From NCBI GenBank assembly GCA_050010755.1, contig JBEKKK010000001.1:1024001-1088000 (forward strand): 64,000 nt of DNA. The letters are read 5' to 3'. Below are positions 10,469 through 42,961 of this stretch, piece by piece (position 1 is the stretch's first letter; each line of letters opens with the position of its first letter). The notes below the pieces were generated by a model. That model was not told where the DNA came from. It made no database searches and was given only the letters and a program-made list of their open reading frames with translations. The position numbers and the translations under genes were made by a program. The stretch is from Candidatus Bathyarchaeia archaeon. Lineage in GTDB: Archaea; Thermoproteota; Bathyarchaeia; Bathyarchaeales; Bathycorpusculaceae.

Positions 10469-10759
10469 GCCAAAGCCGCAATTTCTCACCTACGGCAGCG
10501 TACGACGTGCAGACTTCTCCAATTGTGCACAATGCTCAAAGGTACTGATTTATCAGAACCCATTCAACGAAAAACGTAGTGAATCAATCAGGCAAATTAT
10601 CAAGATATTATCCTCCAACTATTGCGGCGTAATTGTTTGGGCTGGTAAAGTTGACCTCTGGGAAGTGTCAATTTTTGTAAATGAAATTGGGGGTCGTATG
10701 GTGTTATGATAAGAAGGGCGATCACGTGCAAAGAAAGGCTTTCTTGTTTCTCATTTTAG

Positions 10760-11659: not shown

Positions 11660-12027
11660 CCCCAAGAATATTATTCTATCATCAAACATATAGGGTTGTT
11701 GCAAGTTCGAAAAGCCAAAGAAATTGGAAGTCAAAACCATCCTGATCCGAGGGCGCTAAGCGTTTAGTTATTGAAGAAACGTTAGAGTTACTTGTTGATG
11801 TGTCGCCTCATTGCTTGAAGCATGTTGAAGCTTGGCCAAGATTAAGGCAGAAGTTCGTTTCTGCCGTCTTTTGGAGTTTGGGACGTAACTAAAAGGCCAA
11901 GGGAAAGGGCGAACGTTTTGCCTCAGATCTCGAGTCAAGCAAATGCAGCACAAACTCCTGACGAAGTCGATTTCATAAATTGACTTCTCAGGACAGTTGC
12001 GGCAACGTTCAATGACGTGTACGGTCG

Positions 12028-21472: not shown

Positions 21473-24274
21473 TTGGTTACCTTGAATCTTGGCAAGATTT
21501 TCAACCCAAAAAGCGTCGCCGTCATAGGAGCAAGTGATGAAGAAGGCTCAGTCGGCTACGCTTTGATAAAAAATTTCACAGAATCAGGTTTTGCAGGTCA
21601 TGTTTTTCCGGTTAATCTCAAGAAAGCCGAGATCTTAGGCCTAAAGGCATACCAAAGCGTTGAACAAGTTCCTGAACCCTTAGACCTTGCCGTAATTGCC
21701 ACGCCAGCGAGAACCGTGCCCGATGTGCTCGAACAGTGTGGGAAAGTTGGGATAACGGGCATAATCATAATCTCGGCCGGCTTCAAAGAAATAGGGCCAG
21801 AAGGCAGGGCGCTTGAGGAGAAAATAACTGAGATTAAAAAGAAATATAACATGCGCATCGTCGGACCAAACTGCTTGGGCGTGATTCGCCCAATGCTGCA
21901 CTTGAACGCGACGTTCATCAGCAAGATGCCGAAGCCGGGAAACATAGCGTTCATTTCTCAAAGCGGCGCTCTAGGCTCCGCAATCCTCGACTGGGCGATG
22001 CATGAAAACATAGGCTTCAGCAACTTCATATCCTTGGGGTCGATGATAGACGTGGATTTTGGAGATCTTATAGACTATTTCGGCACCGATCCCAAGACAA
22101 AAAGCATCCTCATGTACATTGAAGGAATAACAGACGCGAGAAAGTTCATGAGTGCAGCAAGACACTTTGCCAGGACAAAACCGATAATCGTTGTTAAGGC
22201 TGGAAAATTCAGTGAAAGCGCGAAAGCCGCTGCTTCGCACACCGGTTCGCTCACCGGCGAAGACATGATTTACGACAAGGCATTCAAACGGGCGGGCATG
22301 GTTAGAGTAGAAGAAATCGCTGATCTTTTCAATTGCGCCGCAGTCCTGGGAATGCAGCCCATTCCCCGCGGTCCCAATCTTGCCATAATCACAAACGCCG
22401 GCGGCCCAGGAGTCATGGCAACCGACGCCTTGATCGCTCAAGGAGGAACACTTGCAAAGCTCAGCGATAAGACGATGGAGACGCTCAATAGTATTTTGCC
22501 TCATTTCTGGAGCAGGGGAAACCCGATTGACATCCTCGGAGACGCCAAGGCCGACAGGTACAGGGCAGTGGTTGAGGCTTGTCTAAACGACGACAATGTG
22601 GATGGAATAGTAATAATATACACAGCCCAAGCCGTGGCAGAACCAGTAGAAGTGGCCAAGAGTCTCGCAGAGCTGATTCGAGCCCGAACTTATCAAAACA
22701 AGACAATACTGACTTCGTTCATGGGCTTTGGAGCTGTGGAGGAAGCCAACCGCATATTCGTCGACAACAACATTCCAACATATTCCACACCCGAGCAGGC
22801 GATCAAGACATACCAATTCATGCACCAGTATAAGCGCAATCTTGAATTGCTCTATGAAACGCCAGAAGAACTCCCAACGGACGTTGTGCCGCCAAAACGA
22901 CCGCTTCTGACCGTTTTGAGAAACGTTGCGGCTGAAAACCGCGAGATACTCACCGAAGTCGAAGCCAAAACCTTCTTGGAATATTACAACTTTCCAGTTG
23001 TAAGAACAAGAACAGCAACGACAGAAAACGACGCTGCCCTGTTGGCTTCCCAGCTTGGCTATCCTGTCGTTTTGAAGATTCTTTCTCCTCAGATCACGCA
23101 CAAGAGCGATGCAGGCGGCGTCGCGTTGGACTTAACAAACGAAAACGAAGTGCGAGAAGCGTTCAAAGAAATAATGCAGAGAGCAAAGCAGTACAACCCA
23201 GATGCTGATATTTTGGGTGTGACCGTTCAGCCGATGATTAAGAGGCAGGGCTACGAAGTGATAATTGGAGCCAAGGCCGACCCTTTGTTCGGCCCGGTCA
23301 TACTTTTCGGGATGGGAGGAGTCGGCGTGGAACTCTTCGAGGACTTTGCCATAGGAATCCCTCCGTTGAATCAGACTCTGGTGAGAAGGATGATAGAAGA
23401 AACCAAGATTTATCAGCTTCTGAAAGGGTACAGAAATGAGCCTCCCGCTAACGTCAAGCTCCTGGAGGAGATATTGGTTCGGTTCAGCCAGATGCTCGTT
23501 GATTTTCCTCAACTGAAAGAAGTTGACATCAACCCTCTTTTTATAAACGAAAAAGAAGCGTTCGCCTTCGACGCACGCATCGTGATTGATCCAAAGAAAG
23601 TTTTCAAAAAGTTTGAGCCTCATGAACACCTCGTCGTAACCCCGTATCCAACAAAATACGAAACCTTGTGGAGGCTCCGAGACGGAAGAACTGTCATACT
23701 CAGGCCGATAAAGCCCGAGGACGAACCGTTGTGGCTGGAAATGTTCCAAAACTTCTCAGAGGAGTCAATACGCTATAGGTTCTTCCAGATACTCAAGGAT
23801 ACACCGCATGAGACCAGAGTCCGCTATTGCAACATAGACTACGACCGGGAAATAGCCATAGTCGCGGAACTGACCGAAGAAGGACGAAAGAGAATCCTCG
23901 GCGTGGCCCGAGTGAGCATAGAACCTGACGGAAAAACGGGGGAAATCGCCTTCATCGTCGCAGATCCTTGGCAGGGTCTGGGACTGGGAACGAAGCTAGT
24001 GGATTATGTGCTTGAAATCTGCGCAGACATGAAACTCGAAACAATCTACGCCATAATGCTCGCTGACAACTACAGGGCAATGGGCCTCATGAAAAAAATG
24101 GGTTTTACGGTCAAGTACATGGACGACGGAACTGTAAAAGGGACGCTGGACTTGAGAGAAGAAGAGGCCAAATGCGCAGAACCAAAAATGGCCGAAGAGA
24201 ACCGAATCCAGAACCAAACAGAAACGCAAATGGAATCTAAACAACATAGAGAAGCAGAACCTATACCAAGTTGA
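21473..24274 (+). CDS. ADP-forming acyl-CoA synthetase (alpha-beta fusion) with C-terminal GNAT (Pat-like)
   Basis: VAVIGAS, GPNCLG, SQSGA, SHTGSL, NAGGPG, HKSDAGGV, DINP; GNAT WQGLGLG. Confidence 0.92.
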   Translation: MVTLNLGKIFNPKSVAVIGASDEEGSVGYALIKNFTESGFAGHVFPVNLKKAEILGLKAYQSVEQVPEPLDLAVIATPARTVPDVLEQCGKVGITGIIIISAGFKEIGPEGRALEEKITEIKKKYNMRIVGPNCLGVIRPMLHLNATFISKMPKPGNIAFISQSGALGSAILDWAMHENIGFSNFISLGSMIDVDFGDLIDYFGTDPKTKSILMYIEGITDARKFMSAARHFARTKPIIVVKAGKFSESAKAAASHTGSLTGEDMIYDKAFKRAGMVRVEEIADLFNCAAVLGMQPIPRGPNLAIITNAGGPGVMATDALIAQGGTLAKLSDKTMETLNSILPHFWSRGNPIDILGDAKADRYRAVVEACLNDDNVDGIVIIYTAQAVAEPVEVAKSLAELIRARTYQNKTILTSFMGFGAVEEANRIFVDNNIPTYSTPEQAIKTYQFMHQYKRNLELLYETPEELPTDVVPPKRPLLTVLRNVAAENREILTEVEAKTFLEYYNFPVVRTRTATTENDAALLASQLGYPVVLKILSPQITHKSDAGGVALDLTNENEVREAFKEIMQRAKQYNPDADILGVTVQPMIKRQGYEVIIGAKADPLFGPVILFGMGGVGVELFEDFAIGIPPLNQTLVRRMIEETKIYQLLKGYRNEPPANVKLLEEILVRFSQMLVDFPQLKEVDINPLFINEKEAFAFDARIVIDPKKVFKKFEPHEHLVVTPYPTKYETLWRLRDGRTVILRPIKPEDEPLWLEMFQNFSEESIRYRFFQILKDTPHETRVRYCNIDYDREIAIVAELTEEGRKRILGVARVSIEPDGKTGEIAFIVADPWQGLGLGTKLVDYVLEICADMKLETIYAIMLADNYRAMGLMKKMGFTVKYMDDGTVKGTLDLREEEAKCAEPKMAEENRIQNQTETQMESKQHREAEPIPS

Positions 24275-24502
24275 CCGACAACCCTGGTGTTTTTCCTAAA
24301 ACTCATTCTAATGTCCTTTCGATACGGGTAGAGTGTCAATCTTGGTCGGTTTTCATCGTGCTCTCGTTTAGAAGCGTCCAGTCTACCTGTTTCGATTAGC
24401 GTTCAAGTTATGTACCATTCTTTGAGGAGTCAAGGAAAAACTCTAAATAACTCAGACTTAATGCACATTTAGCTCAAAATCGAAGAAAGGGAGGGCCTGT
24501 GA

Positions 24503-25093
24503 ATGTCTGAATGGAAAACAATTAGCATCAGACAGGAACTCATAAAAGAAATCGAAAAAATCATCAAAACAGGCCGTTACCGAAGCATCTCAGAATTTGT
24601 GTCAGAAGCCGTTCGCCTGCGCCTGGAAGAACTCACACGCGTGGAAGGATTCTCAACGGGCAAGACTCAGGAAACGCATTCCGCACCTGACCATTTGTTA
24701 TACACGCCGAAACACACGTGGGCTCAAACGACGGAGGATGGAAACGTACGCGTCGGCATGTCTGACTATGCTCAGAAGCGGCTCAAGGGTCTGGCCGACG
24801 TTCGAACAGATCCTATAGGAAAAGAACTTAACAAGATGGAACCGTTCGGAGTCGCAGAAACATGGATGCTGCTATTCGACCTCTATTCGCCGATAAGCGG
24901 TCAAATAGTCAAAATCAACGAAAAACTAAGGGAAAAACCCACCGTGGTCAATGAAGACCCATACGGACGAGGGTGGATCGTGGAAATCAGACCCAATAAC
25001 TCTTTGAATTTGAAGCAGGAGCTTGACGGGCTGATGGGCGCGCGTGAATACACCAAATGGGTTGACAAACTGGAGGAAAGATCGCATGAGTAA
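24503..25093 (+). CDS. Ribbon-helix-helix domain fused to glycine-cleavage H-protein-like domain lacking the lipoyl Lys
   Basis: WKTISI...YRSISEFVSEAVR (RHH); YTPKHTW, VGMSDYAQ, LYSPISG, VNEDPYGRGWI (GcvH fold); AETWM instead of AESVK. Confidence 0.85.
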   Translation: MSEWKTISIRQELIKEIEKIIKTGRYRSISEFVSEAVRLRLEELTRVEGFSTGKTQETHSAPDHLLYTPKHTWAQTTEDGNVRVGMSDYAQKRLKGLADVRTDPIGKELNKMEPFGVAETWMLLFDLYSPISGQIVKINEKLREKPTVVNEDPYGRGWIVEIRPNNSLNLKQELDGLMGAREYTKWVDKLEERSHE

Positions 25094-25137
25094 ACAGGAT
25101 TGCAAGATGACATGTCGAGCCAGGGGTCTTGACATAT

Positions 25138-25160
25138 GCTACCCTTATGCCAAGGGTGGC
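25138..25160. promoter_or_regulatory. Inverted repeat GCTACCCTT-n5-AAGGGTGGC just upstream of the TATA-like box of the hdr/mvh cluster
   Basis: 8 of 9 bp dyad; TTTAATA at about 25169-25175. Confidence 0.45.
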
Positions 25161-25221
25161 TTAGGTGCTTTAATAAGTTCGCTTTGGAATCATTATTTGA
25201 CGAGTGAAGCGAGGTTCGAGA

Positions 25222-26940
25222 ATGACGACTGAGTCTGTTACGAACGTGAAAAGAAAACTGCCGCCATGCCGTTATGCGTGTCCAGCACACGTCAACGTTC
25301 AAGCATACGTTTCTCTTATTCAAAGAGGAAAGTACAAGGAAGCTGTTGACATAATTCGAAACGACATGCCCTTCCCAGCAATCTGCGGAAGAGTGTGCTT
25401 CAGCCCATGCGAGGATGCATGTGCAAGAACTGATGTCGACCAGGCTGTGGCCATACGCGCATTAAAGAAGTTTGTAGCAGACATTGAACGCCAACAGAGG
25501 AAGGTCAAACCCAAACCAATACCCAAGAGACATCCAGAGAAAGTCGCGATCATCGGAGCAGGTCCCGCAGGCCTAACCGCGGCATACGAACTCGCGAAAC
25601 TCGGTTATCCCGTAACAGTCTATGAACGCATGGCCGAGCCAGGAGGCATGATGCGCTACTGCATACCCGATTTCCGCCTTGAAAAATTCGTCGTCGAAAA
25701 CGAAGCAAACTACATCAAAGACTTGGGCGTGGAAATCAGAACAGGCGTAGAATTTGGAAAGGACATCACGATTGAGAGTCTGCAGAAGGAAGGCTACAGG
25801 GCTGTTTTTCTGGCCATCGGCACCCAGAAAGGCATGATGCTTAATGTTCCGGGTGAAGACCTGAAAGGCGTAGTGAACGCCGTTGACTTCCTAAGGGACA
25901 TGGCCCTCGGAAAACACGTTGAAATCGGGCAAAAAGTAGCCGTTGTCGGTGGGGGAAACAGCGCGATAGACGCTGCCAGAACAGCCAAAAGAATGGGCGC
26001 AAAAGAAGTCACCCTTCTCTACAGACGTTCCCGAGAGGAAATGCCCGCCCTACCAAGCGAAGTGGAAGAAGCCGAAAAAGACGGCGTCAAAATAGAAATT
26101 CTAGTCGCACCCAAACAGATCATCGGGCAAAACGGCAAAGTCGAAGCCCTCGAATGCTTGCGAATGAAGCTGGGTGAACCCGACGAAAGCGGCAGGAGGC
26201 GTCCAGTGCCAATAGCCGGTTCTGAACACAAATACGAGGTGGACATGGTCATTCCAGCCCTGGGTCAGTTGGCAGAAGCCGCGTGTATTCCAAAGCCCTT
26301 ACAGGATGAAAAAGCAAGGATTCCAACAGTTGCCACGGATCCATTAACGCTCGAGACCAGGGTTCCAGGGGTCTTCGCTGGTGGTGACATAGCCACTGGG
26401 CCGGCAAGTATAATCGAAGCCGTGGGGCAGGGAAAACGGGCAGCCGCGTCAATTCACCTTCACCTTAGCGGACAAGACGTGCACAAGGACCGAGAGGAAA
26501 ACTTCGAAGAGGCAACATGGGCTAAGGATCTGAAGCAGATAAAGAAGAAAGAGCGTCGGTACAATCCGCTTCCAGAGAAATCCCGCACCACTTTCGAAGA
26601 AGTGCAAGACTACGTGGAAAAGCTGGAGAGAGATGCCAAGTTTGAAGCTTGCCGTTGCTTGGGTTGCGGGCCTTGCGCAGAATGTCTCGGAACCACAGAA
26701 TTGTGCGAAGGTGACAAAGCTGCCGTGGACGAAGCTCTCTGCATAGGCTGCAACGTGTGCGCCATCGTCTGTCCATTCGGAGCGGTTGAAAAGGACGAGA
26801 ACAACATCGCGCGAATAAACGAGGATCTTTGCAAGGGATGCGGACTCTGTGCCGCAAGATGCCCAGTGAGGGCGATAACGATGAAGAAAATAACCAACGA
26901 GCGCATACTAAACTTTGCCATACCAACCCTTAAGGAGTAG
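25222..26940 (+). CDS. GltD/NfnB/SudA-like NAD(P)H Fe-S flavoprotein with C-terminal 2x[4Fe-4S] domain
   Basis: PCxxACP, CGRVCxxPCExxC, GAGPAG, GGGNSA, YRRS, CIGCNVC and CKGCGLC. Confidence 0.9.
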   Translation: MTTESVTNVKRKLPPCRYACPAHVNVQAYVSLIQRGKYKEAVDIIRNDMPFPAICGRVCFSPCEDACARTDVDQAVAIRALKKFVADIERQQRKVKPKPIPKRHPEKVAIIGAGPAGLTAAYELAKLGYPVTVYERMAEPGGMMRYCIPDFRLEKFVVENEANYIKDLGVEIRTGVEFGKDITIESLQKEGYRAVFLAIGTQKGMMLNVPGEDLKGVVNAVDFLRDMALGKHVEIGQKVAVVGGGNSAIDAARTAKRMGAKEVTLLYRRSREEMPALPSEVEEAEKDGVKIEILVAPKQIIGQNGKVEALECLRMKLGEPDESGRRRPVPIAGSEHKYEVDMVIPALGQLAEAACIPKPLQDEKARIPTVATDPLTLETRVPGVFAGGDIATGPASIIEAVGQGKRAAASIHLHLSGQDVHKDREENFEEATWAKDLKQIKKKERRYNPLPEKSRTTFEEVQDYVEKLERDAKFEACRCLGCGPCAECLGTTELCEGDKAAVDEALCIGCNVCAIVCPFGAVEKDENNIARINEDLCKGCGLCAARCPVRAITMKKITNERILNFAIPTLKE

Positions 26941-26946
26941 ATATGA

Positions 26947-27702
26947 ATGACGGATAAAGAACCCAGAATTGTTTGTTTGATGTGTAACTTCGCCTTCTGC
27001 AGCAGCGAAAACCCAGTGCCATCTAACTTCAACGTGGGACGCGTAAACTGCATCGGAGAAATAGACCCGACGGTTGTTCTAGAAATATTCGAGAAAGGCG
27101 CCGATGCTGTGATGCTGGCAGGATGCAAACCGCCAGACTGTCACTTCGTTGAAGGTAACCTGCAGGCAGAACGCGCCGTAAGAATGATGAAGAAGCTTTT
27201 GGCATTGACAGGCTTGGAGCCTGAACGTCTAAACCTGCTCTGGTACTCGCCCTTTGAAGAAACGAGTTTCACGCCTTCAGCGAAAGAGTTCTCCAAGGAA
27301 ATAGAGAAACTGGGAACTTCCCCGCTGAAAAATGCAGGGCGTGAATCTATGCTTATGGTGAACCTCCTTGCTGCCAAGAACGCTGCCGGCGAGTTTCGCC
27401 TGAGAGTCCTGCTTGGCAGGGAGAAGGAACTCACCGAGGGCGTGAACGTTTACGGTGACAGACTCACACCTGAGGAATTCGACACATTGATGGATGACGT
27501 TGTTGAAGACGAATTCATCAGGTACAAGATTCACGTTCTCACAAGAACCAAGCCGCTTTCAGTCAAGGCCTTGGCGGAAGTAACCGAAATGAAGCCAGCG
27601 GCGGTTCTCAAGCAGATTGTTAACATGCGCAGAAAAAACATGATAGCTCTAGACAGCATTGAAGGAACGACACCTCTCTACAAAGCTTTGGAGATTGAAT
27701 AG
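26947..27702 (+). CDS. MvhD-like [2Fe-2S] subunit with long C-terminal extension (putative winged helix)
   Basis: MCN, RVNCIG, GAD...AGCKPPDCHF; tail LSVKALAE...VLKQIVNMRRKNMI. Confidence 0.82.
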   Translation: MTDKEPRIVCLMCNFAFCSSENPVPSNFNVGRVNCIGEIDPTVVLEIFEKGADAVMLAGCKPPDCHFVEGNLQAERAVRMMKKLLALTGLEPERLNLLWYSPFEETSFTPSAKEFSKEIEKLGTSPLKNAGRESMLMVNLLAAKNAAGEFRLRVLLGREKELTEGVNVYGDRLTPEEFDTLMDDVVEDEFIRYKIHVLTRTKPLSVKALAEVTEMKPAAVLKQIVNMRRKNMIALDSIEGTTPLYKALEIE

Positions 27703-27703
27703 A

Positions 27704-30700
27704 ATGAAAAACCAAAAAATCGGAGCAGTAATGGTGGTCGGCGGAGGAGTCGCTGGCATACAAGCATCCTTGGATCTAGCCGATTCTGGATTCAAAGTGT
27801 ATCTTGTTGACAAAGGACCAAGCATAGGCGGGGTGATGGCTCAGCTCGACAAGACGTTTCCAACAAACGACTGTTCAATGTGCATCTTGTCACCCAAGCT
27901 TGTTGCAACTGGAAGACACCCGAACATCACGATTCTGACGAACGCAGATATCATGGGATTGAACGGTGAAGCTGGAAACTTCGAAGTAAAGATTCGAAAA
28001 AACAGCCGTTACATAATCGAAGACAAGTGCAACGGCTGCGGCATCTGCGCGCAGAAGTGTCCAATCGAAGCCGTTGACACGTTTAACGAAGGCCTAGCGA
28101 AGAGAGGCGCTGTCTACGTGGAGTATCCACAGGCAGTCCCGCTGAAGTACAAGATTGACCGCGAAAAATGCATAGGATGCGGAACGTGCTACGAAATCTG
28201 CAAAGCAAGAGCAATTGAGTACGACCAGAAAGAGACCGAGACAACCCTGAAAGTTGGCTCAATAATCCTCGCTCCCGGATTCGAACCCTTCGACGCAACG
28301 CTCAAAACCGAGTACGGCTACGGACGCTTCCAAAACGTGGTCACAAGCCTCGAATTCGAGCGAATCCTTAGCGCCTCCGGCCCGTACGGCGGACTCGTCA
28401 TAAGACCATCAGACGGTGAAATACCGAAAAGAGTAGCCTTTATCCAATGCGTCGGCTCAAGAGACTATCAACTCGGAAACAACTACTGTTCCGCGGCATG
28501 TTGCATGTACGGCATAAAAGAAGCCGTCATAGCAAAAGAGCACACACCCATCCAAATTGACGCGTCAATCTTTTACATGGACATGCGTTCGTACGGAAAA
28601 GAGTTCGACGCGTACCGCAACCGCGCCGAGGAAGAGTACGGCATAAGATTCACGAGATCACGCGTCGCCGGAGTCACTGAAGACCCGTTGACGGGTAACC
28701 CCTTCGTCCATTACGTCCAAGACGAAACCCCAAAGACGGAAGAGTTCGACATGGTTGTGCTGGCAATAGGCATGCAACCCCCGAAAGGCGTTAAAGAACT
28801 GGCCAAAAACCTGGGAATCAAGCTCAACAAGTACAACTTCTGCGCAACACAAACTTTCTCTCCGATGGACACTTCGAAACCCGGCATCTACGTCTGTGGT
28901 GCTTTCTCAGCACCGAAAGACATACCTGAAAGCGTAGCCCAAGCAAGCGGCGCGGCGGCAAGAGCCATGGGAATAATCGCAGACGCAAGAGGAACACAGG
29001 TTGTAGCAAGGGTGTATCCTGCTGAAAGAGACGTGAGCAAAGAAGAGCCTCGCATCGGAGTCTTCGTCTGCCACTGCGGAATCAACATAGGCGGAGTCGT
29101 GAATGTACCACAAGTCGTGGAATACGCAAAGACCTTGCCAAATGTGGCCTACGCAGAAGCAAACGTTTACACTTGCTCACAGGACACTCAGAAGCTCATG
29201 TGCGAAGAAATCAAGCAGAACAAACTGAACCGGGTTATAGTTGCTTCGTGCACACCGAGGACGCATGAGCCGCTCTTCAAAGAAACAGTCCGGGAAGCTG
29301 GATTGAACCCGTACTTGTTTGAGATGACGAACATCCGAGACCAGTGCAGCTGGGTGCATATGCACGAACCGAAAGAAGCTACGGAAAAAGCCAAAGACCT
29401 CATCAGGTCGATAGTTGCCAAAACAGCACTCTTGAAACCCTTGAAGAAACCGGTGATAAGCGTCACCCAAGTGGGTCTCATAATAGGAGGCGGCGTCTCT
29501 GGTATGACGGCAGCTTTGGAGCTTGCAAAACAGGGTTTCGAAGTGCATTTGATTGAAAAAGAAAAGGAATTGGGTGGTCATCTTCTCACGATGTACTCTC
29601 TACTTGGAGAGAAAGGCGATCCGAAAGAAAAAGTAAATGCCATCGTCGACGAAGTCATGAAGAATGACAAGATACACGTCTACACCGAAGCAGAAGTTGC
29701 CGAGGTCCACGGTTTCGTGGGAAACTTCAAGTCAAAAATCCACCAACAGAACGGTAGCGAAAAGGAAATTCAGCACGGCATAGTGATAGTCGCCACTGGT
29801 GCGGTAGAATACAGACCCACGGAGTACTTCTATGACAAAGACCCGAGAGTCGTGACACAACATGAGCTGGAAGAAGACCTTGCAAAAGGAGAATTCAACG
29901 CCAAAAACGTGGTCATGGTCCAATGTATCGGGGCAAGGACAAAAGAGCGACCCAACTGCTCAAGAATATGCTGTGGACAAGCCATCAAGAACGCTTTGAA
30001 AATCAAGGAAGTAAGCCCGCAGACCGAAGTGTACGTGTTATTCAAGGACATCAGATCCTACGGGTTCAAAGAAGACTACTACCGTGACGCTGCAATGAAA
30101 GGGGTCACGTTCATAAACTATGGCGATGAACGCAAGCCGGAACTCACCAAGGAGGGAAACAAACTCAAAATGGCCTTCTGGGAACCCGTGCTGAAGCAAC
30201 AACTCGATATTGAGCCTGATCTAGTGGTTTTGAGTGTGGCAACGATTCCGAACCCTGGGAACAAGCATATAGCCGAACTTCTCAAGGTGCCGCTGACAAA
30301 GGATGGCTCATTCTTGGAAGCACACATGAAACTCCGCCCAGTGGATTTCGCAACCGACGGCGTTTTCCTGTGCGGAATGGCTCATTCGCCAAAGTACATC
30401 GAAGAAAGCATCGCACAAGCGTGTGCAGCTGCTTCGAGGGCCGCAACAATACTCTCCAAAAGCACGCTCGAGATGGAAGGAATTATCGCGAACGTTGACG
30501 AAGATTTATGTAGTGCCTGTAGGGTCTGTGAGTATTTGTGTCCGTACAGTGCAGTCGAAATTAAGGACAAGGATGGAAAATCAATCGCACACGTGATTGA
30601 AGCCTTGTGCAAGGGCTGCGGCGCCTGTGGGACTGCCTGTCCGACCAAAGCTATTACGATGGGACACTTTACCACGCAGGAAATACTTGCCCAGGTCAAA

Positions 30701-30724
30701 GCAGCTTTAGTGGAGGCGGAATGA
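27704..30724 (+). CDS. hdrA: Heterodisulfide reductase subunit A, tandem-duplicated (two FAD modules)
   Basis: GGGVAG, LDKTFPTNDC, QCVGSR..CSAACC, internal VCHCG, second GGGVSG, QCIGAR..CSRICC, HMKLRPVD, terminal ferredoxin motifs. Confidence 0.93.
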   Translation: MKNQKIGAVMVVGGGVAGIQASLDLADSGFKVYLVDKGPSIGGVMAQLDKTFPTNDCSMCILSPKLVATGRHPNITILTNADIMGLNGEAGNFEVKIRKNSRYIIEDKCNGCGICAQKCPIEAVDTFNEGLAKRGAVYVEYPQAVPLKYKIDREKCIGCGTCYEICKARAIEYDQKETETTLKVGSIILAPGFEPFDATLKTEYGYGRFQNVVTSLEFERILSASGPYGGLVIRPSDGEIPKRVAFIQCVGSRDYQLGNNYCSAACCMYGIKEAVIAKEHTPIQIDASIFYMDMRSYGKEFDAYRNRAEEEYGIRFTRSRVAGVTEDPLTGNPFVHYVQDETPKTEEFDMVVLAIGMQPPKGVKELAKNLGIKLNKYNFCATQTFSPMDTSKPGIYVCGAFSAPKDIPESVAQASGAAARAMGIIADARGTQVVARVYPAERDVSKEEPRIGVFVCHCGINIGGVVNVPQVVEYAKTLPNVAYAEANVYTCSQDTQKLMCEEIKQNKLNRVIVASCTPRTHEPLFKETVREAGLNPYLFEMTNIRDQCSWVHMHEPKEATEKAKDLIRSIVAKTALLKPLKKPVISVTQVGLIIGGGVSGMTAALELAKQGFEVHLIEKEKELGGHLLTMYSLLGEKGDPKEKVNAIVDEVMKNDKIHVYTEAEVAEVHGFVGNFKSKIHQQNGSEKEIQHGIVIVATGAVEYRPTEYFYDKDPRVVTQHELEEDLAKGEFNAKNVVMVQCIGARTKERPNCSRICCGQAIKNALKIKEVSPQTEVYVLFKDIRSYGFKEDYYRDAAMKGVTFINYGDERKPELTKEGNKLKMAFWEPVLKQQLDIEPDLVVLSVATIPNPGNKHIAELLKVPLTKDGSFLEAHMKLRPVDFATDGVFLCGMAHSPKYIEESIAQACAAASRAATILSKSTLEMEGIIANVDEDLCSACRVCEYLCPYSAVEIKDKDGKSIAHVIEALCKGCGACGTACPTKAITMGHFTTQEILAQVKAALVEAE

Positions 30725-31164
30725 TGAGCAAGAACGACGGGTTTGAACCGAAAATAATAGGTTTTCTGTGCAACTGGTGCAGTTACGCAGGCGCAGACTT
30801 GGCCGGTGTGAGCAGAATCCAGTACCCCCCGAACATCAGAATCATACGCGTGATGTGCAGCGGCAGGATAGACCCAGCGTTCGTGCTTGAAGCCTTCAAA
30901 GACGGCGCCGACGGAGTGCTGGTTGCTGGTTGTCACTTGCCGTCTGACTGTCACTACATTAGCGGTAATTTCAAGGCTATGAGAAGGATAAACCTGTTGA
31001 AGAGAGTCTTGAAAGATTTCGGGATAGAACCTGAACGTTTGCGGCTGGAATGGATCTCGGCGAGTGAGGGAGACAAATGGGCAGCTGTGGTCAAAAGCAT
31101 GGTGGAGGACCTGAAGAAGCTCGGTCCGAGCCAAGTGCAGGATATGGAAGCTGAAGTCGAATGA
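30721..31164 (+). CDS. mvhD: F420-non-reducing hydrogenase subunit D
   Basis: FLCNWCSYAGAD, RVMCSGR, GCH..DCHY, WISASEG. Confidence 0.95.
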   Translation: MMSKNDGFEPKIIGFLCNWCSYAGADLAGVSRIQYPPNIRIIRVMCSGRIDPAFVLEAFKDGADGVLVAGCHLPSDCHYISGNFKAMRRINLLKRVLKDFGIEPERLRLEWISASEGDKWAAVVKSMVEDLKKLGPSQVQDMEAEVE

Positions 31165-31688
31165 CGGAAACCGCCGGTGAAAAGCCGATAAAGGCTTCAG
31201 AAATCGATCCCAAGTTTAAGTATGAGATATCGAAGATGCACGGCGGAGAAAAACTGATGCGCTGCTTCCAGTGTGGAACATGCACATCAGACTGTCCGGT
31301 TGCGAGGTTCAGCGAGACCTACAGGCCCAGACAGATAATACGCATGGCACAGCTCGGTCTCAGAGACAGAGTGCTGAACAGCGACACTCTGTGGCTTTGC
31401 GCAGCCTGCTTCACGTGCACAGACCGGTGTCCACAAGATGTTGAGGTTGCCAGTGTGATACGTGTTCTGAGAAACTTGGCAGCTGAGAAGGGCATCGTTC
31501 CTCAAATGTTCAAAGAGGAAGCATCAAGCATACTCGAGTCAGGCTACGCCTACCGAATTCCCGAGTTAAGGCTAAAGAAGAGAGAAACCCTGGGCCTGCC
31601 GCCGCTACCGAAGGGGAACCCCGGAAGCATAGGAAAAACGCTTCGGGAAATAAAGTTTCTTAAGTGCGTCGAAAAGAAGGGAAGCTAG
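31161..31688 (+). CDS. hdrC: Heterodisulfide reductase subunit C
   Basis: CFQCGTCTSDCP; WLCAACFTCTDRCP. Confidence 0.93.
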   Translation: MTETAGEKPIKASEIDPKFKYEISKMHGGEKLMRCFQCGTCTSDCPVARFSETYRPRQIIRMAQLGLRDRVLNSDTLWLCAACFTCTDRCPQDVEVASVIRVLRNLAAEKGIVPQMFKEEASSILESGYAYRIPELRLKKRETLGLPPLPKGNPGSIGKTLREIKFLKCVEKKGS

Positions 31689-31689
31689 G

Positions 31690-32580
31690 ATGGCCGAACA
31701 CAAGTATCTCCTGTTTCTGGGATGCGCAATTCCCTACCGTGTAGCCGCGTACGAGATCTCGGCGCGCAAAATCCTGCAGAGACTCGGCGTGGAAATAGTT
31801 GAGATGCCCGAGTTCAACTGTTGCGGGCTTCCGTTAGATCCTGTGAGCCACGAAACGATGCTCATTCTGGCAGCCAGAAATCTTGCAATAGCGGAGCAGA
31901 AAGGATTGGATATCGTGGCCTTGTGCCCAGGCTGTGCTGGGACTTTGAAGAAAGTCAGCAAGATGTTGAAAGAAGATAAGCACATGTGTGAAGAGATAAA
32001 CGGCCATTTGAAGGAAGCTGGATTGGAGTTCAAGGGAAACGTTACAGCAAAGCACTTGTTGCAGGTGCTGATTGAAGACGTAGGGTTGGAGAAGATAAAA
32101 GAAATGGTCGTCAGGCCGCTTACAAACGTGAAAGTTGCTGAACACAACGGTTGCCACATTTTGAGGCCAAAGGAATATATCGGTTTTGATGATCCTGAGG
32201 ATCCGAAAACACTCAAGACCTTGATTGAAGCGACTGGGGCAACATGTTTGGATTACTTGGATGAGATAGAATGCTGCGGTGCTCCAAGCGTTGGCGTGAA
32301 CGATAAGGTCGCTCTACAGCTCGCAAGGGACAAGTTGAACCACATCAAGACTGTGGATGCGCAGGCGTTGATAACCATATGCCCGTTCTGTCACATCATG
32401 TACGACACGAACGAGTTGCGCATCGAAAAAATGTTCAACGAGGTTTACGGTATTCCAATCCTGCATTACCCTCAACTACTGGGTTTGGCAATGGGGATGT
32501 CGCCTGAAGAACTGGCTTTCAATGAACTTCGCGTTAACTGTTCAAAAATATTGGGACAAGTGTGTGAGGGTGGAAAGTAA
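31690..32580 (+). CDS. hdrB: Heterodisulfide reductase subunit B
   Basis: Two CCG domains: FLGC..NCCG..CPGC; GCH..ECCG..CPFC. Confidence 0.93.
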   Translation: MAEHKYLLFLGCAIPYRVAAYEISARKILQRLGVEIVEMPEFNCCGLPLDPVSHETMLILAARNLAIAEQKGLDIVALCPGCAGTLKKVSKMLKEDKHMCEEINGHLKEAGLEFKGNVTAKHLLQVLIEDVGLEKIKEMVVRPLTNVKVAEHNGCHILRPKEYIGFDDPEDPKTLKTLIEATGATCLDYLDEIECCGAPSVGVNDKVALQLARDKLNHIKTVDAQALITICPFCHIMYDTNELRIEKMFNEVYGIPILHYPQLLGLAMGMSPEELAFNELRVNCSKILGQVCEGGK

Positions 32581-33561
32581 ATGAGCGAAAAACTGAAACT
32601 GGGTTTCTACTGGGCTGCAAGCTGTGGCGGGTGCGAAATCGCGGTGCTGGACATAAACGAGAAAATACTGGACGTAGTGAAAATCGCGGACATAGTGTTT
32701 TGGCCTGTTGCTATAGACGTCAAGTACAAAGACGTTGAAGCCATGCCCGACAAGTACATAGACATATGCTTCTTCAACGGGTCAATCAGGACCGGGGAAC
32801 AGGAACACATGGCCAAACTCCTCAGACAAAAATCCAAGACGCTCGTGGCGTTCGGCTCCTGCGCCCAAGAAGGATGCATACCGGGCCTAGCGAACCTTCA
32901 TGACCGAAAAGAAATCTTTGACAAAGTCTATTTGGAAAGCAAATCCATCGCGAACCCGAAAAGAATCGTTCCCAAAACCGAGACTGAGGTAAAAGAAGGC
33001 GTGTTAAAGCTGCCGAAGTTCTACGATACGGTGAAAACCCTTGATCAGACCGTTGACGTTGACTACTACCTGCCTGGCTGCCCACCTCCTGTAAAGCTAA
33101 TAGCAACTGCCGTGGAAGCCATCGCAAATAATCAGCTACCACCAAAGGGCTCAGTGCTTGCACCATTAAAATCTGTCTGCGACGAATGCCCACGCAAGAA
33201 GGACAACAAGAAAATCTCAAAAATATATCGTGTCTACGAGAAGATACCGGAACCGGAGAAGTGCCTGCTCGAACAAGGCATAATATGCATGGGACCAGCA
33301 ACTCGTAGCGGCTGCGGTGCTCAATGCCTCACCGTTGACATGCCCTGCACAGGATGTGGTGGACCCTGCCCAAACTCTCCAGAACAGGGAGCAGCAATGA
33401 TGAGCGCAGTAGCTTCGATACTTGGGCTTGAAGGCGAGACGGAGCATTACAGTCAGGAGGATGTTGACAACTTGATGAATCAGATCAAAGATCCTCTTGG
33501 AACATTCTACATGTACTCTTTGCCATCGTCTATTCTTAGAAGGAAAGTGATGGAAAAATGA
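32581..33561 (+). CDS. mvhG: Group 3c [NiFe]-hydrogenase small subunit
   Basis: CGGC, FGSC, PGCPP, VCDEC, CMGPATRSGC, PCTGCGG. Confidence 0.92.
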   Translation: MSEKLKLGFYWAASCGGCEIAVLDINEKILDVVKIADIVFWPVAIDVKYKDVEAMPDKYIDICFFNGSIRTGEQEHMAKLLRQKSKTLVAFGSCAQEGCIPGLANLHDRKEIFDKVYLESKSIANPKRIVPKTETEVKEGVLKLPKFYDTVKTLDQTVDVDYYLPGCPPPVKLIATAVEAIANNQLPPKGSVLAPLKSVCDECPRKKDNKKISKIYRVYEKIPEPEKCLLEQGIICMGPATRSGCGAQCLTVDMPCTGCGGPCPNSPEQGAAMMSAVASILGLEGETEHYSQEDVDNLMNQIKDPLGTFYMYSLPSSILRRKVMEK

Positions 33562-35012
33562 AGGAAATAGTAATAGATCCGATAACTAGACTGGAAGGCC
33601 ACGGCAATGTTTCGATCTTCCTGAACAACGAGGGCGAAGTTGACAACGCCTACCTCAAGATACCTGAACTCAGGGGGTTCGAACAGTTCTGCGTCGGCAG
33701 AAGAGCCGAGTTGATGCCGATTCTAACGACCAGAATCTGCGGCGTCTGCCCAGTAGCGCATCATTTTGCGGCAACAAAAGCCTTGGATGCAGCTTTCAAC
33801 GTTGAACCTCCGTCAGCCGCCAAGAAGCTCAGAGAACTCATGTACGCCGGTTACGTCATTTATGATCACACTCTGCACTTTTACTTTCTCGGAGGACCGG
33901 ACTTCATCGTTGGACCGGATGCACCGCCAGAAAAGAGGAACATTCTAGGAGTCATCGAGAAGGCCGGGATGGACGTGGCGAAAGAAGTTATCAAACACAG
34001 GGCGTACGGGCAGAGAATAACTGCCATTCTCGGCGGAAAGGCGACGCATCCAGTGTGCGGTCTACCAGGCGGCATCTCGAAGCCATTAAGCGAAGAGAAC
34101 AGGCAGGAAATTGAGATGATGGCCGCGTCGTCCCTAGAGTTCGCAAAGCTCACGCTGAAGATTTTCCACGAAATCGTCCTCGGAAACCCGAAGTACGTTG
34201 ACATGATCAAGAGCGACGCGTACACGATGAACACTTACTACATGGGCATGGTAGATGAGCACAACAAGGTTAACTTTTACGACGGCAAAATCAGAGTCGT
34301 CTATCCCAGCGGCGGCGAATTCCTCAAGTTTGAACCAAAAGACTACCTGACACAGATTGGCGAACACGTGGAAGAATGGACCTACGCAAAGTTCCCGTTC
34401 CTCAAAAAGGTAGGGTGGAAAGGCCTGGTTTACGGTCCTGACAGCGGAGTCTACCGCGTTGGCCCACTTGGAAGACTCAATGCTTCAGACGGAATGGCGA
34501 CACCGCTCGCACAGGAAGAGTACGATGTAATGTACAAGACTCTAGGCGGAAAACCGGTGCACGGCACTCTGGCATTCCACTGGGCAAGGCTGATTGAGCT
34601 GCTCTACGCAACTGAACGGGCGCTTGAGCTTGTCAAAGATCCTGAGATAACGAGCACGAACGTGCGGAACAAGCCGGGCGAGCCTGGAGAAGGCGTCGGT
34701 GTCGTCGAGGCAGCGAGGGGCACCCTGTTCCACCACTACGTGTTGGACAAGGACGCGCTCATCAAAGACGTGAACATGATCGTGGCGACAACCAACAACT
34801 ATCCCGCAATCTGCATGTCCATCCGCGACGCGGCAAAAGGCCTTATACACAAGGGCAAAGTGGACCAAGGCATGCTCAACATGGTCGAAATGGCTTTCAG
34901 AGCATACGACCCCTGCTTCGGATGCGCTACGCACTATGCCGTAGGACAAATGCCCCTAACCGTAAAAATCTACGACGCAAACAAAAACCTGATCCAGAAA
35001 CTGGAAAGATAA
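33558..35012 (+). CDS. mvhA: Group 3c [NiFe]-hydrogenase large subunit
   Basis: TRLEGH, RGFE, RICGVC (L1), RAYDPCFGCATH (L2) plus cleavable C-terminal extension. Confidence 0.94.
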   Translation: MKEIVIDPITRLEGHGNVSIFLNNEGEVDNAYLKIPELRGFEQFCVGRRAELMPILTTRICGVCPVAHHFAATKALDAAFNVEPPSAAKKLRELMYAGYVIYDHTLHFYFLGGPDFIVGPDAPPEKRNILGVIEKAGMDVAKEVIKHRAYGQRITAILGGKATHPVCGLPGGISKPLSEENRQEIEMMAASSLEFAKLTLKIFHEIVLGNPKYVDMIKSDAYTMNTYYMGMVDEHNKVNFYDGKIRVVYPSGGEFLKFEPKDYLTQIGEHVEEWTYAKFPFLKKVGWKGLVYGPDSGVYRVGPLGRLNASDGMATPLAQEEYDVMYKTLGGKPVHGTLAFHWARLIELLYATERALELVKDPEITSTNVRNKPGEPGEGVGVVEAARGTLFHHYVLDKDALIKDVNMIVATTNNYPAICMSIRDAAKGLIHKGKVDQGMLNMVEMAFRAYDPCFGCATHYAVGQMPLTVKIYDANKNLIQKLER

Positions 35013-35060: not shown

Positions 35061-35558
35061 GTGGCCATCCTTGAATCTAGCTTCAGGAAGGAGCTTAGTG
35101 ATTGGCTTTCAAAGGCTAACAGGGTCGTTCTGGCCGGTATCGGAAACCCCATTAGAATGGACGATTATGTCGGAGTGAAAATAGTCCAGGATTTGCGTGA
35201 CAAGCTTTCTGACAGAGTTCTCCTCTTAGAATGCGAAACGGTTCCTGAGGGTTTCATGCAGCAGATCATAGATTTCAATCCAACTCATGTTCTTCTTGTA
35301 GACGCAGCAGTTCTGGGCCTGAAGCCAGGCGCCTGCAGGCTCGTTGAACCTGAGCGATTGGCGGTATCTCCTGCCTTCTCAACGCACATGCTTCCGTTGC
35401 GAATTTTCTGTGACCAAGTCAAGGAGACAACGCGAGCCAAGATCGCCCTTTTGCTTGTTGAGCCTGAGAAAGATGATTTTGGGGAGGGTTTGACGCCCCG
35501 TGTCCAAGCTTCTGCAAAAGAAATTGCAAGGATCCTGCTTGAACTACTCCCACGATAG
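35061..35558 (+). CDS. hycI: Hydrogenase maturation endopeptidase (HycI-type)
   Basis: GIGNPIRMDD.VG, ETVPE, VDAA, STH.LPL. Confidence 0.9.
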   Translation: MAILESSFRKELSDWLSKANRVVLAGIGNPIRMDDYVGVKIVQDLRDKLSDRVLLLECETVPEGFMQQIIDFNPTHVLLVDAAVLGLKPGACRLVEPERLAVSPAFSTHMLPLRIFCDQVKETTRAKIALLLVEPEKDDFGEGLTPRVQASAKEIARILLELLPR

Positions 35559-42784: not shown

Positions 42785-42961
42785 GGATTCCACCTGTTCT
42801 TCATTATTTTGATTGGAGATTAGGTAAGTCATTGACCCTTGTTTTATAGTTTTCCAGTTTTCCTTGCGAGAACGATGGCCGAGGTGTCGCATAGTGTATC
42901 ATGAAACTTGTTTACAAGACTTTTATAGGCGCCTCATTCAATCCTACCGTGTGGTAGCCGC

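Follow-up and report, generated by a model that had tools for sequence, protein, structure and literature searches.

Why does a gene that public pipelines name as a glycine cleavage H protein stand at the head of a cluster of heterodisulfide reductase (Hdr) and hydrogenase genes, and why does its product begin with what resembles a DNA-binding domain? The question is raised by a 196-aa open reading frame in the window, by which we mean the whole stretch of 64,000 nucleotides from a Candidatus Bathyarchaeia archaeon that was analysed. The gene and the parts of its product are as follows.

24503..25093, + strand: RHH-GcvH-like gene, an open reading frame of 196 aa with an ATG start (Pfam RHH_1 and GCV_H)
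24515..24631, + strand: ribbon-helix-helix (RHH) domain, residues 5-43 (Pfam, hhalign)
24644..24679, + strand: flexible linker, residues 48-59 (AlphaFold2 pLDDT <50, alignment)
24695..25066, + strand: H-protein (GcvH) fold, residues 65-188 (Pfam, pLDDT, Foldseek)
24857..24877, + strand: hairpin E119-T120-W121-M122-L123-L124-F125, replacing the lipoylation motif E-S-V-K (sequence, alignment to solved GcvH)

The start codon is preceded by a Shine-Dalgarno sequence, GGGAGGG, at 24489-24495, and the 196-aa product contains no cysteine. The C-terminal part matches Pfam GCV_H over residues 65-188 (E 8e-30), was predicted by AlphaFold2 with a pLDDT of 83-97, and aligns in Foldseek to solved H-proteins with a target-normalised TM of 0.92-0.94 and an rmsd of 1.1-1.4 A, at 31-39% identity. 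The EHxW-like and NEDPY..GW motifs of GcvH are retained, and descent from GcvH is the best explanation of this domain. When the family profile was compared by hmmsearch with solved GcvH structures, the lipoyl lysine of the E-S-T-K hairpin fell on position 122, which in the window is a methionine (ATG, 24866-24868) within the codons ACA TGG ATG (24860-24868) for T120, W121 and M122, followed by L123, L124 and F125. Because its lipoyl lysine is replaced by methionine, the domain cannot carry lipoate. Both the fusion of an RHH N-terminus to a full H-protein fold and the reading AETWM in place of AESVK, followed by LLF, had been put forward in a preliminary description of this locus, and the analysis confirms that the two domains, without the lipoyl lysine, lie in one protein.

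The same description had asked whether homologs share the loss, and they do. Among 121 copies from 98 loci, position 122 is methionine in 96, tryptophan in 20, proline in two, and serine, leucine or phenylalanine in one each, with lysine in none; W121 is present in 120 of the 121. In a separate alignment of the query with the best 120 listed homologs (121 rows), every row has E-T-W, and position 122 holds methionine in 112 rows and valine in nine. The lysine loss is thus family-wide, and the hairpin together with the strand after it now forms a hydrophobic patch that is conserved, E-T-W-M-(F/L)-(M/L)-F. Residues of the H-fold are conserved across the family alignment in a pattern of purifying conservation, and the linker varies in both length and sequence.

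The N-terminus can be placed, at profile level, in the RHH superfamily (RHH_1 / CopG-Arc-MetJ), which upholds the initial assignment. Pfam RHH_1 matches residues 6-43 of the whole protein above its cut-off (E 2.5e-4, 21.3 bits against 20.5) and matches residues 1-56 by themselves with 24.3 bits (E 2.8e-5), and 20 of 35 family members give RHH_1 matches at E <= 0.01. An hhalign comparison of the family alignment with 23 RHH segments from Bathyarchaeia genomes, mostly NikR- and CdrS-like, returned a probability of 91.6% (E 8.4e-7) over 41 columns, that is, the whole domain (query residues 5-45), and the best RHH matches among solved PDB structures were NikR chains (E about 0.03). The predicted layout comprises a strand WKTISIRQ, helix A, a loop G-R-Y-R-S and a helix B from S30-E31; the loop and helix cap, G-x-Y-x-S-x-S-E, align with G-Y-x-S-R-S-E of the NikR-like segments, and S30-E31 is nearly invariant. 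The strand and this cap rank with the best-conserved regions of the protein, an argument for a DNA-reading surface under constraint. In the AlphaFold2 monomer a single helix spans residues 2-22 (pLDDT 64-78), where a strand and a helix would be expected, and a prediction for the natural tandem fusion P0121 lacks the ribbon (mean pLDDT 64, RHH parts 35-60), from a folding alignment whose single-unit rows all fall on the second half and whose first half has only 6 rows.

The pattern exceeds chance by a wide margin: we identified homologs at E <= 1e-5 in 642 of 737 scored candidates, with lengths of 177-200 aa among the 120 listed. Of 401 genomes in one order of Bathyarchaeia, 101 have intact frames of about 196 aa, and the family occurs in 65 of the 238 high-quality genomes and 48 of the 117 genera of that order; the best explanation is that it is almost entirely confined to this order, as far as searched. 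A locus search seeded by a single query gave 3 loci, and a search for related loci with P0130 as query gave none. In the ESM Atlas the only cluster was of the protein's own kind, named as GCV_H-containing. In a quick tree, in which the hairpins of six rows were checked by reading, a branch with SH-aLRT 92 separates all 31 lysine-less rows from 107 other rows, suggesting from sequence comparison that the lysine-less H-fold likely arose once. Tandem paralog pairs are present at 25 of the 98 loci, and six protein clusters of 408-417 aa are natural head-to-tail fusions of RHH-GcvH-like units, both of which fit a protein working as an RHH dimer. Three lysine-less copies, P0125, P0126 and P0138, have no RHH domain, indicating that the H-fold has a role for which no fused DNA-binding domain is required.

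The genes that follow in the window, and the two intergenic regions beside the gene, are listed below.

24275..24502, + strand: upstream intergenic region, candidate autoregulatory site (sequence; putative promoter)
25094..25203, + strand: intergenic region before the GltD-like gene, candidate operator/promoter (inverted repeat, TATA-like; putative function)
25204..26940, + strand: GltD/NfnB-like FAD and NAD(P)H oxidoreductase with Fe-S domains, 578 aa (Pfam Fer4_20, Pyr_redox_2, Fer4_21)
26947..27702, + strand: MvhD-like protein, 251 aa, with a C-terminal extension of about 120 aa (Pfam FlpD, residues 19-123)
27659..30724, + strand: HdrA-like flavoprotein, open reading frame of 1021 aa (Pfam Pyr_redox_2, 4 Fer4 stretches, FAD domains); true start likely the ATG near 27704
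30607..31164, + strand: MvhD, open reading frame from GTG (Pfam FlpD, E 5.2e-56); true start likely the ATG near 30718
31161-31688, + strand: HdrC (Pfam Fer4_8, Fer4_17)
31690-32580, + strand: HdrB (Pfam, two CCG domains)
32581-33561, + strand: MvhG, [NiFe] hydrogenase small subunit (Pfam Oxidored_q6)
33558-35012, + strand: MvhA, [NiFe] hydrogenase large subunit (Pfam NiFeSe_Hases)
35061-35558: HycI protease, after MvhA

The GltD-like gene is the first gene of the linked module, and the C-terminus of the MvhD-like protein gave a weak MarR_2 match only (E 0.11).

This arrangement is conserved well beyond the window. A GltD-like gene lies immediately downstream on the same strand at 75 of the 98 loci, and is followed by MvhD-like and HdrA genes wherever the stretch is long enough (53 of the 75). 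At a further 15 loci the downstream gene on the same strand encodes TauE, followed by a Hox-type hydrogenase or by the GltD-like/MvhD-like/HdrA module, and beyond TauE a hydrogenase of a different type is present in 7 of the 15. A 127-aa protein of unassigned family takes this place at three loci; four have no listed downstream gene, three of them reaching far enough and the other, L169, stopping at the end of its stretch. Counted over related, non-independent genomes, and with an E-value line for orthology chosen after a gap in the match list was visible, a full-length GltD-like ortholog was found in 74 genomes, 73 of which also have the RHH-GcvH-like gene, and 299 of the 401 genomes have neither. 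The preliminary description had the gene heading an Hdr cluster, as borne out by the + strand genes from GltD-like to MvhA (25204-35012), and the linkage it proposed to check holds across the family. Given that hydrogenase and heterodisulfide-reductase genes almost always follow directly, the product is probably a local regulator of these genes rather than a GcvH.

We examined the intergenic regions for candidate sites. Upstream of the gene there is a TATA-like TAAATAA (24444-24450), and a block CTAAATAACTCA with its flanks recurs in two congeneric loci, L005 and L006. In the intergenic regions (75 to 363 bases) of seven single-copy orthologs from outside the window's genus, the last 70 or so bases ahead of the start codon contain two conserved TATATAT boxes spaced about 21 nt apart, a pair that also appears when a further 63 upstream sequences are reduced to a consensus. 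Downstream, before the GltD-like gene, an inverted repeat GCTACCC (25138-25144) / GGGTGGC (25154-25160) precedes a TATA-like CTTTAATAAG at 25168-25177; the repeat is kept in four congeneric sequences, with one pair changed on both sides. A pattern search for this palindrome family gave 0 matches in the window, where the copy has a T and the pattern a C. Orthologs at 60-75% identity carry, after the gene, C/T-rich sequence with a T run at its end, and a conserved TTAATATA box then occupies the same place before the GltD-like gene, an arrangement that fits a regulator gene transcribed alone. Around the downstream TATA box, orthologs with the same RHH strand have different inverted repeats, and a split repeat TTTGGATG-N20-CATCCAAA is perfect only in L091 and L038 among the rows displayed. 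The promoter of the gene itself has no operator sequence in common with that of the downstream genes, the longest shared words being A/T-rich and 8-10 nt per genome.

On these data, we consider the protein probably a local RHH transcription factor on the plan of NikR, its lysine-less H-fold serving for effector response, partner binding or oligomerisation. In characterised families RHH domains are DNA-binding modules, and the domain here would be expected to dimerise and to read DNA through its strand, where alignment to NikR-type RHH predicts that T6, S8 and R10 point towards the bases. The protein would control the promoter of the adjoining module, comprising the GltD-like, MvhD-like and HdrA genes and in the window also MvhD, HdrC, HdrB, MvhG and MvhA, and in one family of genomes that of a module of TauE and a Hox-type hydrogenase; it would probably also control its own promoter. 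It might act by repression or activation in response to a signal, for which the lysine-less H-fold would most likely be the effector, partner-binding or oligomerisation module, like the C-terminal domain of NikR. The original proposal, that an H-fold repurposed for sensing a ligand or protein controls hdr/mvh transcription, is therefore partly supported: the sequence-level parts stand, and we infer the control of transcription and the sensing. Against the regulator reading stand the single helix in the AlphaFold2 model, the lack of a common operator, the variable inverted repeats, the lysine-less copies that have no RHH, and the four loci with no listed downstream gene.

NikR, a nickel-responsive regulator with an RHH domain and a C-terminal ACT-like metal-binding domain, controls the supply of nickel and, in some organisms, also genes related to hydrogenase. 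Both proteins have an N-terminal RHH, a linker and a C-terminal domain that does not bind DNA. However, the C-terminus here is an H-protein fold (GCV_H) and not a nickel-binding domain, the query scores 14.4 and 12.6 with the NCBIfam NikR models, whose cut-offs are 83 and 119, and a metal site is not evident in the cysteine-free query. We hypothesise, by analogy, that the RHH-GcvH-like protein could form a NikR-like tetramer. In PutA, a "trigger" protein type, an RHH domain is likewise fused to domains of metabolic origin, although these are active enzymes, whereas the domain here is a carrier fold without its cofactor site. The literature searched, including a passage of 10.1101/2025.01.14.632903, contained no description of an RHH-GcvH protein; the one paper in which both terms occur uses them in unrelated contexts. 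Among the 20 sequencing runs listed with a match, from 14 studies, none was an RNA run.

A more specific version of the regulator, which we regard as unlikely, is that the H-fold is a docking mimic. It would bind the CCG-type (HdrB) or the GltD-like subunit of the adjacent electron-bifurcating complex, much as lipoylated LbpA presents its arm to sHdr; or it would close a NikR-like tetramer, the hydrophobic W-M-F hairpin inserting where a lipoyl arm would sit. Transcription of the hdr/mvh module would then follow the enzyme's own assembly or redox state. If so, a dead cofactor carrier would have given rise to an archaeal regulator that senses its partner, and bacterial fusions of hairpin-less H-folds with HdrD-like proteins would be the same docking made permanent.

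Docking might also occur without regulation. In an alternative to which we give equally little credence, the gene product is a subunit of accessory or adaptor type, whose lysine-less H-fold docks on the GltD-like protein or on Hdr proteins with CCG domains, and whose RHH only dimerises. The tight link to the GltD-like module, by adjacency and by co-occurrence, is consistent with this, as are the standalone lysine-less H-folds and 15 bacterial protein clusters (P0127 and 14 further clusters, Anaerolineae MAGs) in which one to three H-folds without the E-S-x-K hairpin are fused to GlcD-like and HdrD-like (CCG) parts. In these bacterial proteins H-folds lacking that hairpin are physically joined to Hdr-type CCG enzymes, but they have no RHH, are fused to the enzyme itself, and carry H-folds only about 33% identical to the query. 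The precedent for such a subunit is LbpA, described in two papers as lipoylated on a conserved lysine and acting with sHdr, sulfur transferases and dedicated ligases (PMC6067878, PMC11094781), and as essential to sHdr-based sulfur oxidation (PMC6067878). The comparison with sHdr-LbpA drawn in the preliminary description survives as an analogy only: an H-protein-like fold is encoded beside Hdr-type genes in both, but here the lysine is absent, a putative DNA-binding (RHH) domain is present, and the neighbours are GltD-like, MvhD, HdrABC and MvhAG. The Pfam scan of the gene's surroundings covered 10 proteins, including ACS-GNAT, GltD-like, MvhD-like, HdrA, MvhD, HdrC, HdrB, MvhG and MvhA, and detected no DsrE, TusA or LplA/lipoate-ligase family. 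Several observations count against a subunit without a regulatory role. RHH domains of characterised families bind DNA, and the conserved S30-E31 cap and strand point to such a surface here; the T run after the gene and the operon's own TATA box, in the group at 60-75% identity, set the gene apart from the operon; and at 15 loci the next gene encodes the TauE transporter, with a different hydrogenase after it in 7.

A somewhat less probable explanation again is a two-protein switch, in which the H-fold binds a PhoU partner, the divergently encoded AbrB-PhoU protein, and the pair sets expression of the redox operon. The AbrB-PhoU gene lies divergently and directly upstream at 84 of the 98 loci, and the two conserved TATATAT boxes near the start codon would suit such a switch. 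However, in the window's genus an ADP-forming acetyl-CoA synthetase-GNAT gene occupies this position at 4 of 4 such loci, and the window's genome has only two PhoU-AbrB paralogs, which are distant (26-30% identity) and encoded elsewhere. Thus, this partner is dispensable.

That the protein functions as a glycine-cleavage H protein or carries a lipoyl group is highly improbable, and is refuted as far as sequence can tell. The JGI and NCBI name for these proteins, "glycine cleavage system protein GcvH", favours it, as does the NCBIfam subfamily PRK01202, which the query passes by about one bit (118.2 against 117). Against this, the score to the equivalog TIGR00527 (99.2) lies under the cut-off of 115.85, the lipoylation position has lysine in none of the 121 copies, and the same genome encodes elsewhere a canonical GcvH of 136 aa with a V-E-S-V-K motif. 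The likeness to GcvH (PF01597, TIGR00527) is one of fold and retained motifs, and the differences are M122, the N-terminal RHH and an unrelated genomic context of Hdr and hydrogenase genes. As a consequence of the public naming, genome-based claims of glycine cleavage or reductive glycine metabolism in Bathyarchaeia can count a protein unable to carry lipoate. Least probable of all is a decaying, strain-specific gcvH remnant, for which the missing lysine speaks and nothing else, and which is refuted by the intact frames in 101 of 401 genomes, the invariant E-T-W hairpin, the conserved fold residues and the absence of lysine from all 121 copies.

To our knowledge, almost nothing is known of how hydrogenase and Hdr electron-bifurcating modules are controlled in uncultured Bathyarchaeia, and the RHH-GcvH-like family with its usual AbrB-PhoU neighbour provides a concrete regulator candidate that can be tested in vitro. 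The family also shows clearly how a cofactor-carrier fold can be reused once its cofactor site is lost, here with a newly conserved hydrophobic hairpin, and the bacterial Hdr-like enzymes offer a parallel to this reuse. Finally, a second, weak GCV_H match in the window (53140-53295) is unrelated, since it belongs to a biotin-carrier protein (Biotin_lipoyl E 1.5e-23).

The gene for the RHH-GcvH-like protein lies directly downstream of a gene for an acetyl-CoA synthetase-acetyltransferase fusion (ACS-GNAT), and is followed on the same strand by genes for a GltD-like Fe-S flavoprotein, an MvhD-like protein, HdrA, MvhD, HdrC, HdrB, MvhG, MvhA and then a HycI protease, in agreement with its placement at the head of the Hdr cluster in the preliminary description. 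The following genes of the window are considered here.

21473-24274, + strand: ACS-GNAT, 933 aa, with ADP-forming acetyl-CoA synthetase domains (CoA_binding, Succ_CoA_lig, ATP-grasp_5) and a C-terminal GNAT acetyltransferase
24503-25093, + strand: RHH-GcvH-like gene, ATG start after GGGAGGG, 196 residues
26947-27702, + strand: MvhD-like gene after the GltD-like gene, with a C-terminal extension of ~120 aa (weak MarR_2 match, E 0.11)
37503-39350, - strand: aldehyde:ferredoxin oxidoreductase
39505-41070, - strand: protein with Fer2_3 and two CCG domains
41084-42892, - strand: fumarate-reductase-type flavoprotein

The last two genes look like a thiol:fumarate reductase. At the related locus L042, a second MvhD-type gene lies further down the cluster (10494-11273, +; FlpD, E 2.4e-55), and its own C-terminal extension matches HTH_11 (E 4.6e-6). 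The extended MvhD-type proteins may combine an Fe-S domain with a winged helix in one chain.

Profile searches recovered both domains that had been read from the sequence, a ribbon-helix-helix (RHH) and a full H-protein fold in one open reading frame. In Pfam, RHH_1 matches residues 6-43 of the 196-residue protein (21.3 bits against a cut-off of 20.5; 24.3 bits and E 2.8e-5 on residues 1-56 alone), and GCV_H matches residues 65-188 (E 8e-30). In NCBIfam, the protein scores 118.2 bits with the broad GcvH subfamily model (cut-off 117) and 99.2 with the GcvH equivalog TIGR00527, below its cut-off of 115.85, while the ParD, CdrS and NikR models match weakly at the N-terminus. RHH_1 is matched at E ≤ 0.01 by 20 of 35 family members, and when the family alignment was compared by hhalign with 23 RHH_1 segments, which came from genomes of the same order and are mostly NikR- and CdrS-like, the probability was 91.6% (E 8.4e-7) over 41 columns that span the RHH from its strand through helix A and the loop to helix B. 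The protein contains no cysteines.

An AlphaFold2 monomer model built on a 35-row alignment has a mean pLDDT of 82, with values of 83-97 in the H-fold and below 50 in the linker (residues 48-59). Compared with solved H-proteins by Foldseek, the model gives a target-normalised TM of 0.92-0.94 and an rmsd of 1.1-1.4 Å, and, among the matches listed at E ≤ 0.001, the best 21 are all chains of GcvH or GcvH-L. Residues 2-22 of the monomer are modelled as a single helix (pLDDT 64-78), not as strand and helix; RHH strands form solely in the dimer. When P0121, a natural 417-aa tandem of two units, was folded, its RHH parts had pLDDT of 35-60 and no ribbon.

When the family profile was searched against solved structures with hmmsearch, its hairpin v-e-t-w-l fell opposite V-E-S-T-K in a solved H-protein, which puts residue 122 at the position of the lipoyl lysine. 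T120, W121 and M122 are encoded by codons 24860-24868 and followed by L L F, as originally read. Of 737 candidates from a word-indexed search, 642 are homologs at E ≤ 1e-5; the 120 matches listed have lengths of 177-200 aa and identities of 68-95%, and several of them are named as Bathyarchaeia GcvH. E119, T120 and W121 are invariant in these 120 and the query, with M (112) or V (9) at position 122. Across 121 copies from 98 genomic loci we found no K at this position (M 96, W 20, P 2, S 1, L 1, F 1), and W121 is kept in 120; remoter representatives of the family likewise have no lysine. The loss noted in the preliminary description is kept across homologs. A canonical GcvH (136 aa, V-E-S-V-K) is encoded separately in the window's genome. 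We built a quick maximum-likelihood tree from 138 H-fold rows, leaving out proteins of P0136-P0270 outside 115-175 aa; a branch with SH-aLRT 92 has all 31 lysine-less rows on the same side. Six rows labelled canonical by length fall in the lysine-less group; these also lack the canonical hairpin, and one of them, P0161, has K one position earlier.

Nine loci were annotated by Pfam and 98 were classified by tblastn, using proteins from the window and the nine loci as references; L005 and L006, which duplicate the records L084 and L085, were excluded. The next same-strand gene downstream is GltD-like in 75/98 loci, with MvhD-like and HdrA genes after it wherever the locus reaches. In a further 15 the same-strand neighbour encodes a TauE-family (TauE/SafE) transporter (e.g. 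L040:11407-12354, -; L041:4131-5593, +), after which we identified an unannotated protein of ~125-127 aa in 10, a NuoE/NuoF/HoxU/HoxY/HoxH-type [NiFe] hydrogenase in seven, and the GltD-like gene directly in four. The remaining loci have an unannotated 127-aa protein on the same strand (three), a convergent Hox operon (one) or nothing recognised downstream (four).

A full-length GltD-like ortholog (E ≤ 4.8e-217, a cut-off set after a gap down to 3.6e-199 was seen) is present in 74 of the 401 genomes of the window's order, and 73 of these 74 also have the RHH-GcvH-like gene. That gene occurs without the ortholog in 28 genomes, mostly as the TauE/Hox type or truncated forms, and 299 have neither; these counts describe a pattern among related genomes and do not amount to a statistical test. 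The MvhD-like protein is present in one of five high-quality genomes from the same family that have no RHH-GcvH-like gene; there the cluster starts with HdrA, not GltD-like, and both the RHH-GcvH-like gene and PhoU are absent beside it. The linkage to hdr and hydrogenase genes is conserved, and we regard both the domain architecture and its close association with these modules as solid.

In 63 distinct upstream sequences of orthologs with 60-75% identity, two TATATAT boxes ~21 nt apart and AAGGAGG are at least 90% conserved; across these sequences and loci L038-L045 the pattern is TTTGCAT-N3/4-TATATAT-N13/14-TATATATCA-N12-AAGGAGG. The same two boxes stand at most ~70 bases from the start codon in the seven upstream regions read from single-copy orthologs of other genera, within intergenic regions of 75 to 363 bases. 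On the 3' side of the stop codon, the orthologs of 60-75% identity have a C/T-rich stretch with a terminal T run and, ~40 nt beyond it, a conserved (T/C)TnRRTG-N2-TTAATATA ahead of the GltD-like gene. Such a layout looks like a gene that ends in a putative terminator-like signal of its own, with a separate promoter for the operon behind it, and would suit a regulator gene. Two elements stand out in the window.

24444-24450: TATA-like TAAATAA, the one such box kept in the upstream region of the window and its congeners
25138-25144 / 25154-25160: inverted repeat GCTACCC-N9-GGGTGGC, 7 bp, 8 nt ahead of the TATA-like CTTTAATAAG that precedes the GltD-like gene

Among four congeneric sequences, too small a set to judge from, one pair of the repeat is altered in both arms, and in one sequence the repeat is broken. 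We could not find a motif common to the gene's own promoter and the downstream promoter when these regions were compared, and every operator proposal, drawn from sequence patterns, is a candidate and a lead only.

The protein conforms to the RHH superfamily at sequence level. It has the GcvH fold but lacks the defining lysine and the equivalog score, and it lacks the defining features of NikR and those of LbpA, the lipoate-binding protein of sulfur-oxidiser Hdr systems (PMC6067878, PMC11094781). We therefore place it as a probable RHH-type regulator on the NikR plan that belongs to none of GcvH, LbpA or NikR; the name GcvH in public databases is wrong for this family. A search of article full texts gave no description of an RHH-GcvH protein. 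Within that search, the architecture and its link to Hdr and hydrogenase modules are unpublished, and the protein is probably an RHH regulator whose effector domain is without precedent.

Of the readings considered, a local RHH transcription factor has the best support, and we favour it with some reserve. Of the earlier proposal of an hdr/mvh regulator sensing through its H-fold, the domains, lysine loss and hdr linkage stand, and the regulatory role is likely rather than established. The effector domain would be an H-protein fold with its lipoyl-lysine hairpin swapped for a conserved hydrophobic one, and the layout of RHH, linker and C-terminal domain would have NikR as its nearest working analogy. 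In NikR, the C-terminal domain is both the tetramerisation module and the receiver of the signal. The partner of the H-fold could be itself, the AbrB-PhoU neighbour, an adjacent redox-complex subunit or a small hydrophobic ligand.

Lysine-less H-folds without an RHH (P0125, P0126, P0138) were also identified, and in MAGs named as Anaerolineae 15 clusters (P0127, P0326-P0339; 953-1405 aa) fuse one to three N-terminal GCV_H domains without the E-S-x-K hairpin to GlcD-like (FAD_binding_4/FAD-oxidase_C) and HdrD-like (Fer4 dicluster, two CCG domains) enzyme parts. These point towards an H-fold that binds protein partners. Such binding is compatible with an adaptor that does not bind DNA, which we consider unlikely for a protein carrying an RHH.

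Upstream, a divergent AbrB(MazE-like)-PhoU fusion gene is found in 84/98 loci (L038-L045, L086-L169; e.g. L039:4198-5316, -). The ACS-GNAT gene is upstream in four, the window and three congeners, and nothing or the locus end in ten; the PhoU-AbrB paralogs of the window's genome lie elsewhere and are merely 26-30% identical. That the RHH-GcvH-like protein and PhoU form an obligate two-protein switch is accordingly quite improbable. The loss of the lysine is old and has been kept under constraint, and a working GcvH or a decaying gene, even taken together, can be given hardly any weight beside a local RHH transcription factor.

Tandem pairs occur in 25/98 loci (e.g. L044:7597-8802, -; L045:2191-3393, +), with a 'B' paralog (E-S/T-W-W-F-T-Y) upstream and an 'A' paralog (ETWMFMF) downstream, and six clusters of in-frame B+A fusions (P0121, P0271-P0275; 408-417 aa) are natural single-chain pairs. 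P0280 (397 aa), a single-member cluster on a 2.7-kb contig, is an A-type protein with a C-terminal DUF2096 (four-helix bundle and KH-like domain).

Some H-protein match at E ≤ 1e-10 was identified in 137/151 sampled Bathyarchaeia genomes, and matches spanning RHH and H-fold in only nine, all in the window's order. Within that order the family (E ≤ 1e-35) is present in 101/401 genomes, and in 65/238 high-quality genomes and 48/117 genera. When 185,579 species genomes were scanned with a pattern, 108 relatives were found; the titles of 80 kept comprise 77 Bathyarchaeia/Bathyarchaeota/Bathyarchaeales, two 'uncultured archaeon' and one 'Thermoproteota archaeon', and one member of the distant cluster P0130 is named Candidatus Baldrarchaeota. 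At locus L047 (G062:C65, ~11077-11675, -), the match covers no more than residues 54-193 and lies in an open frame of 148 aa that a short ORF abuts; this copy could be frameshifted or RHH-less.
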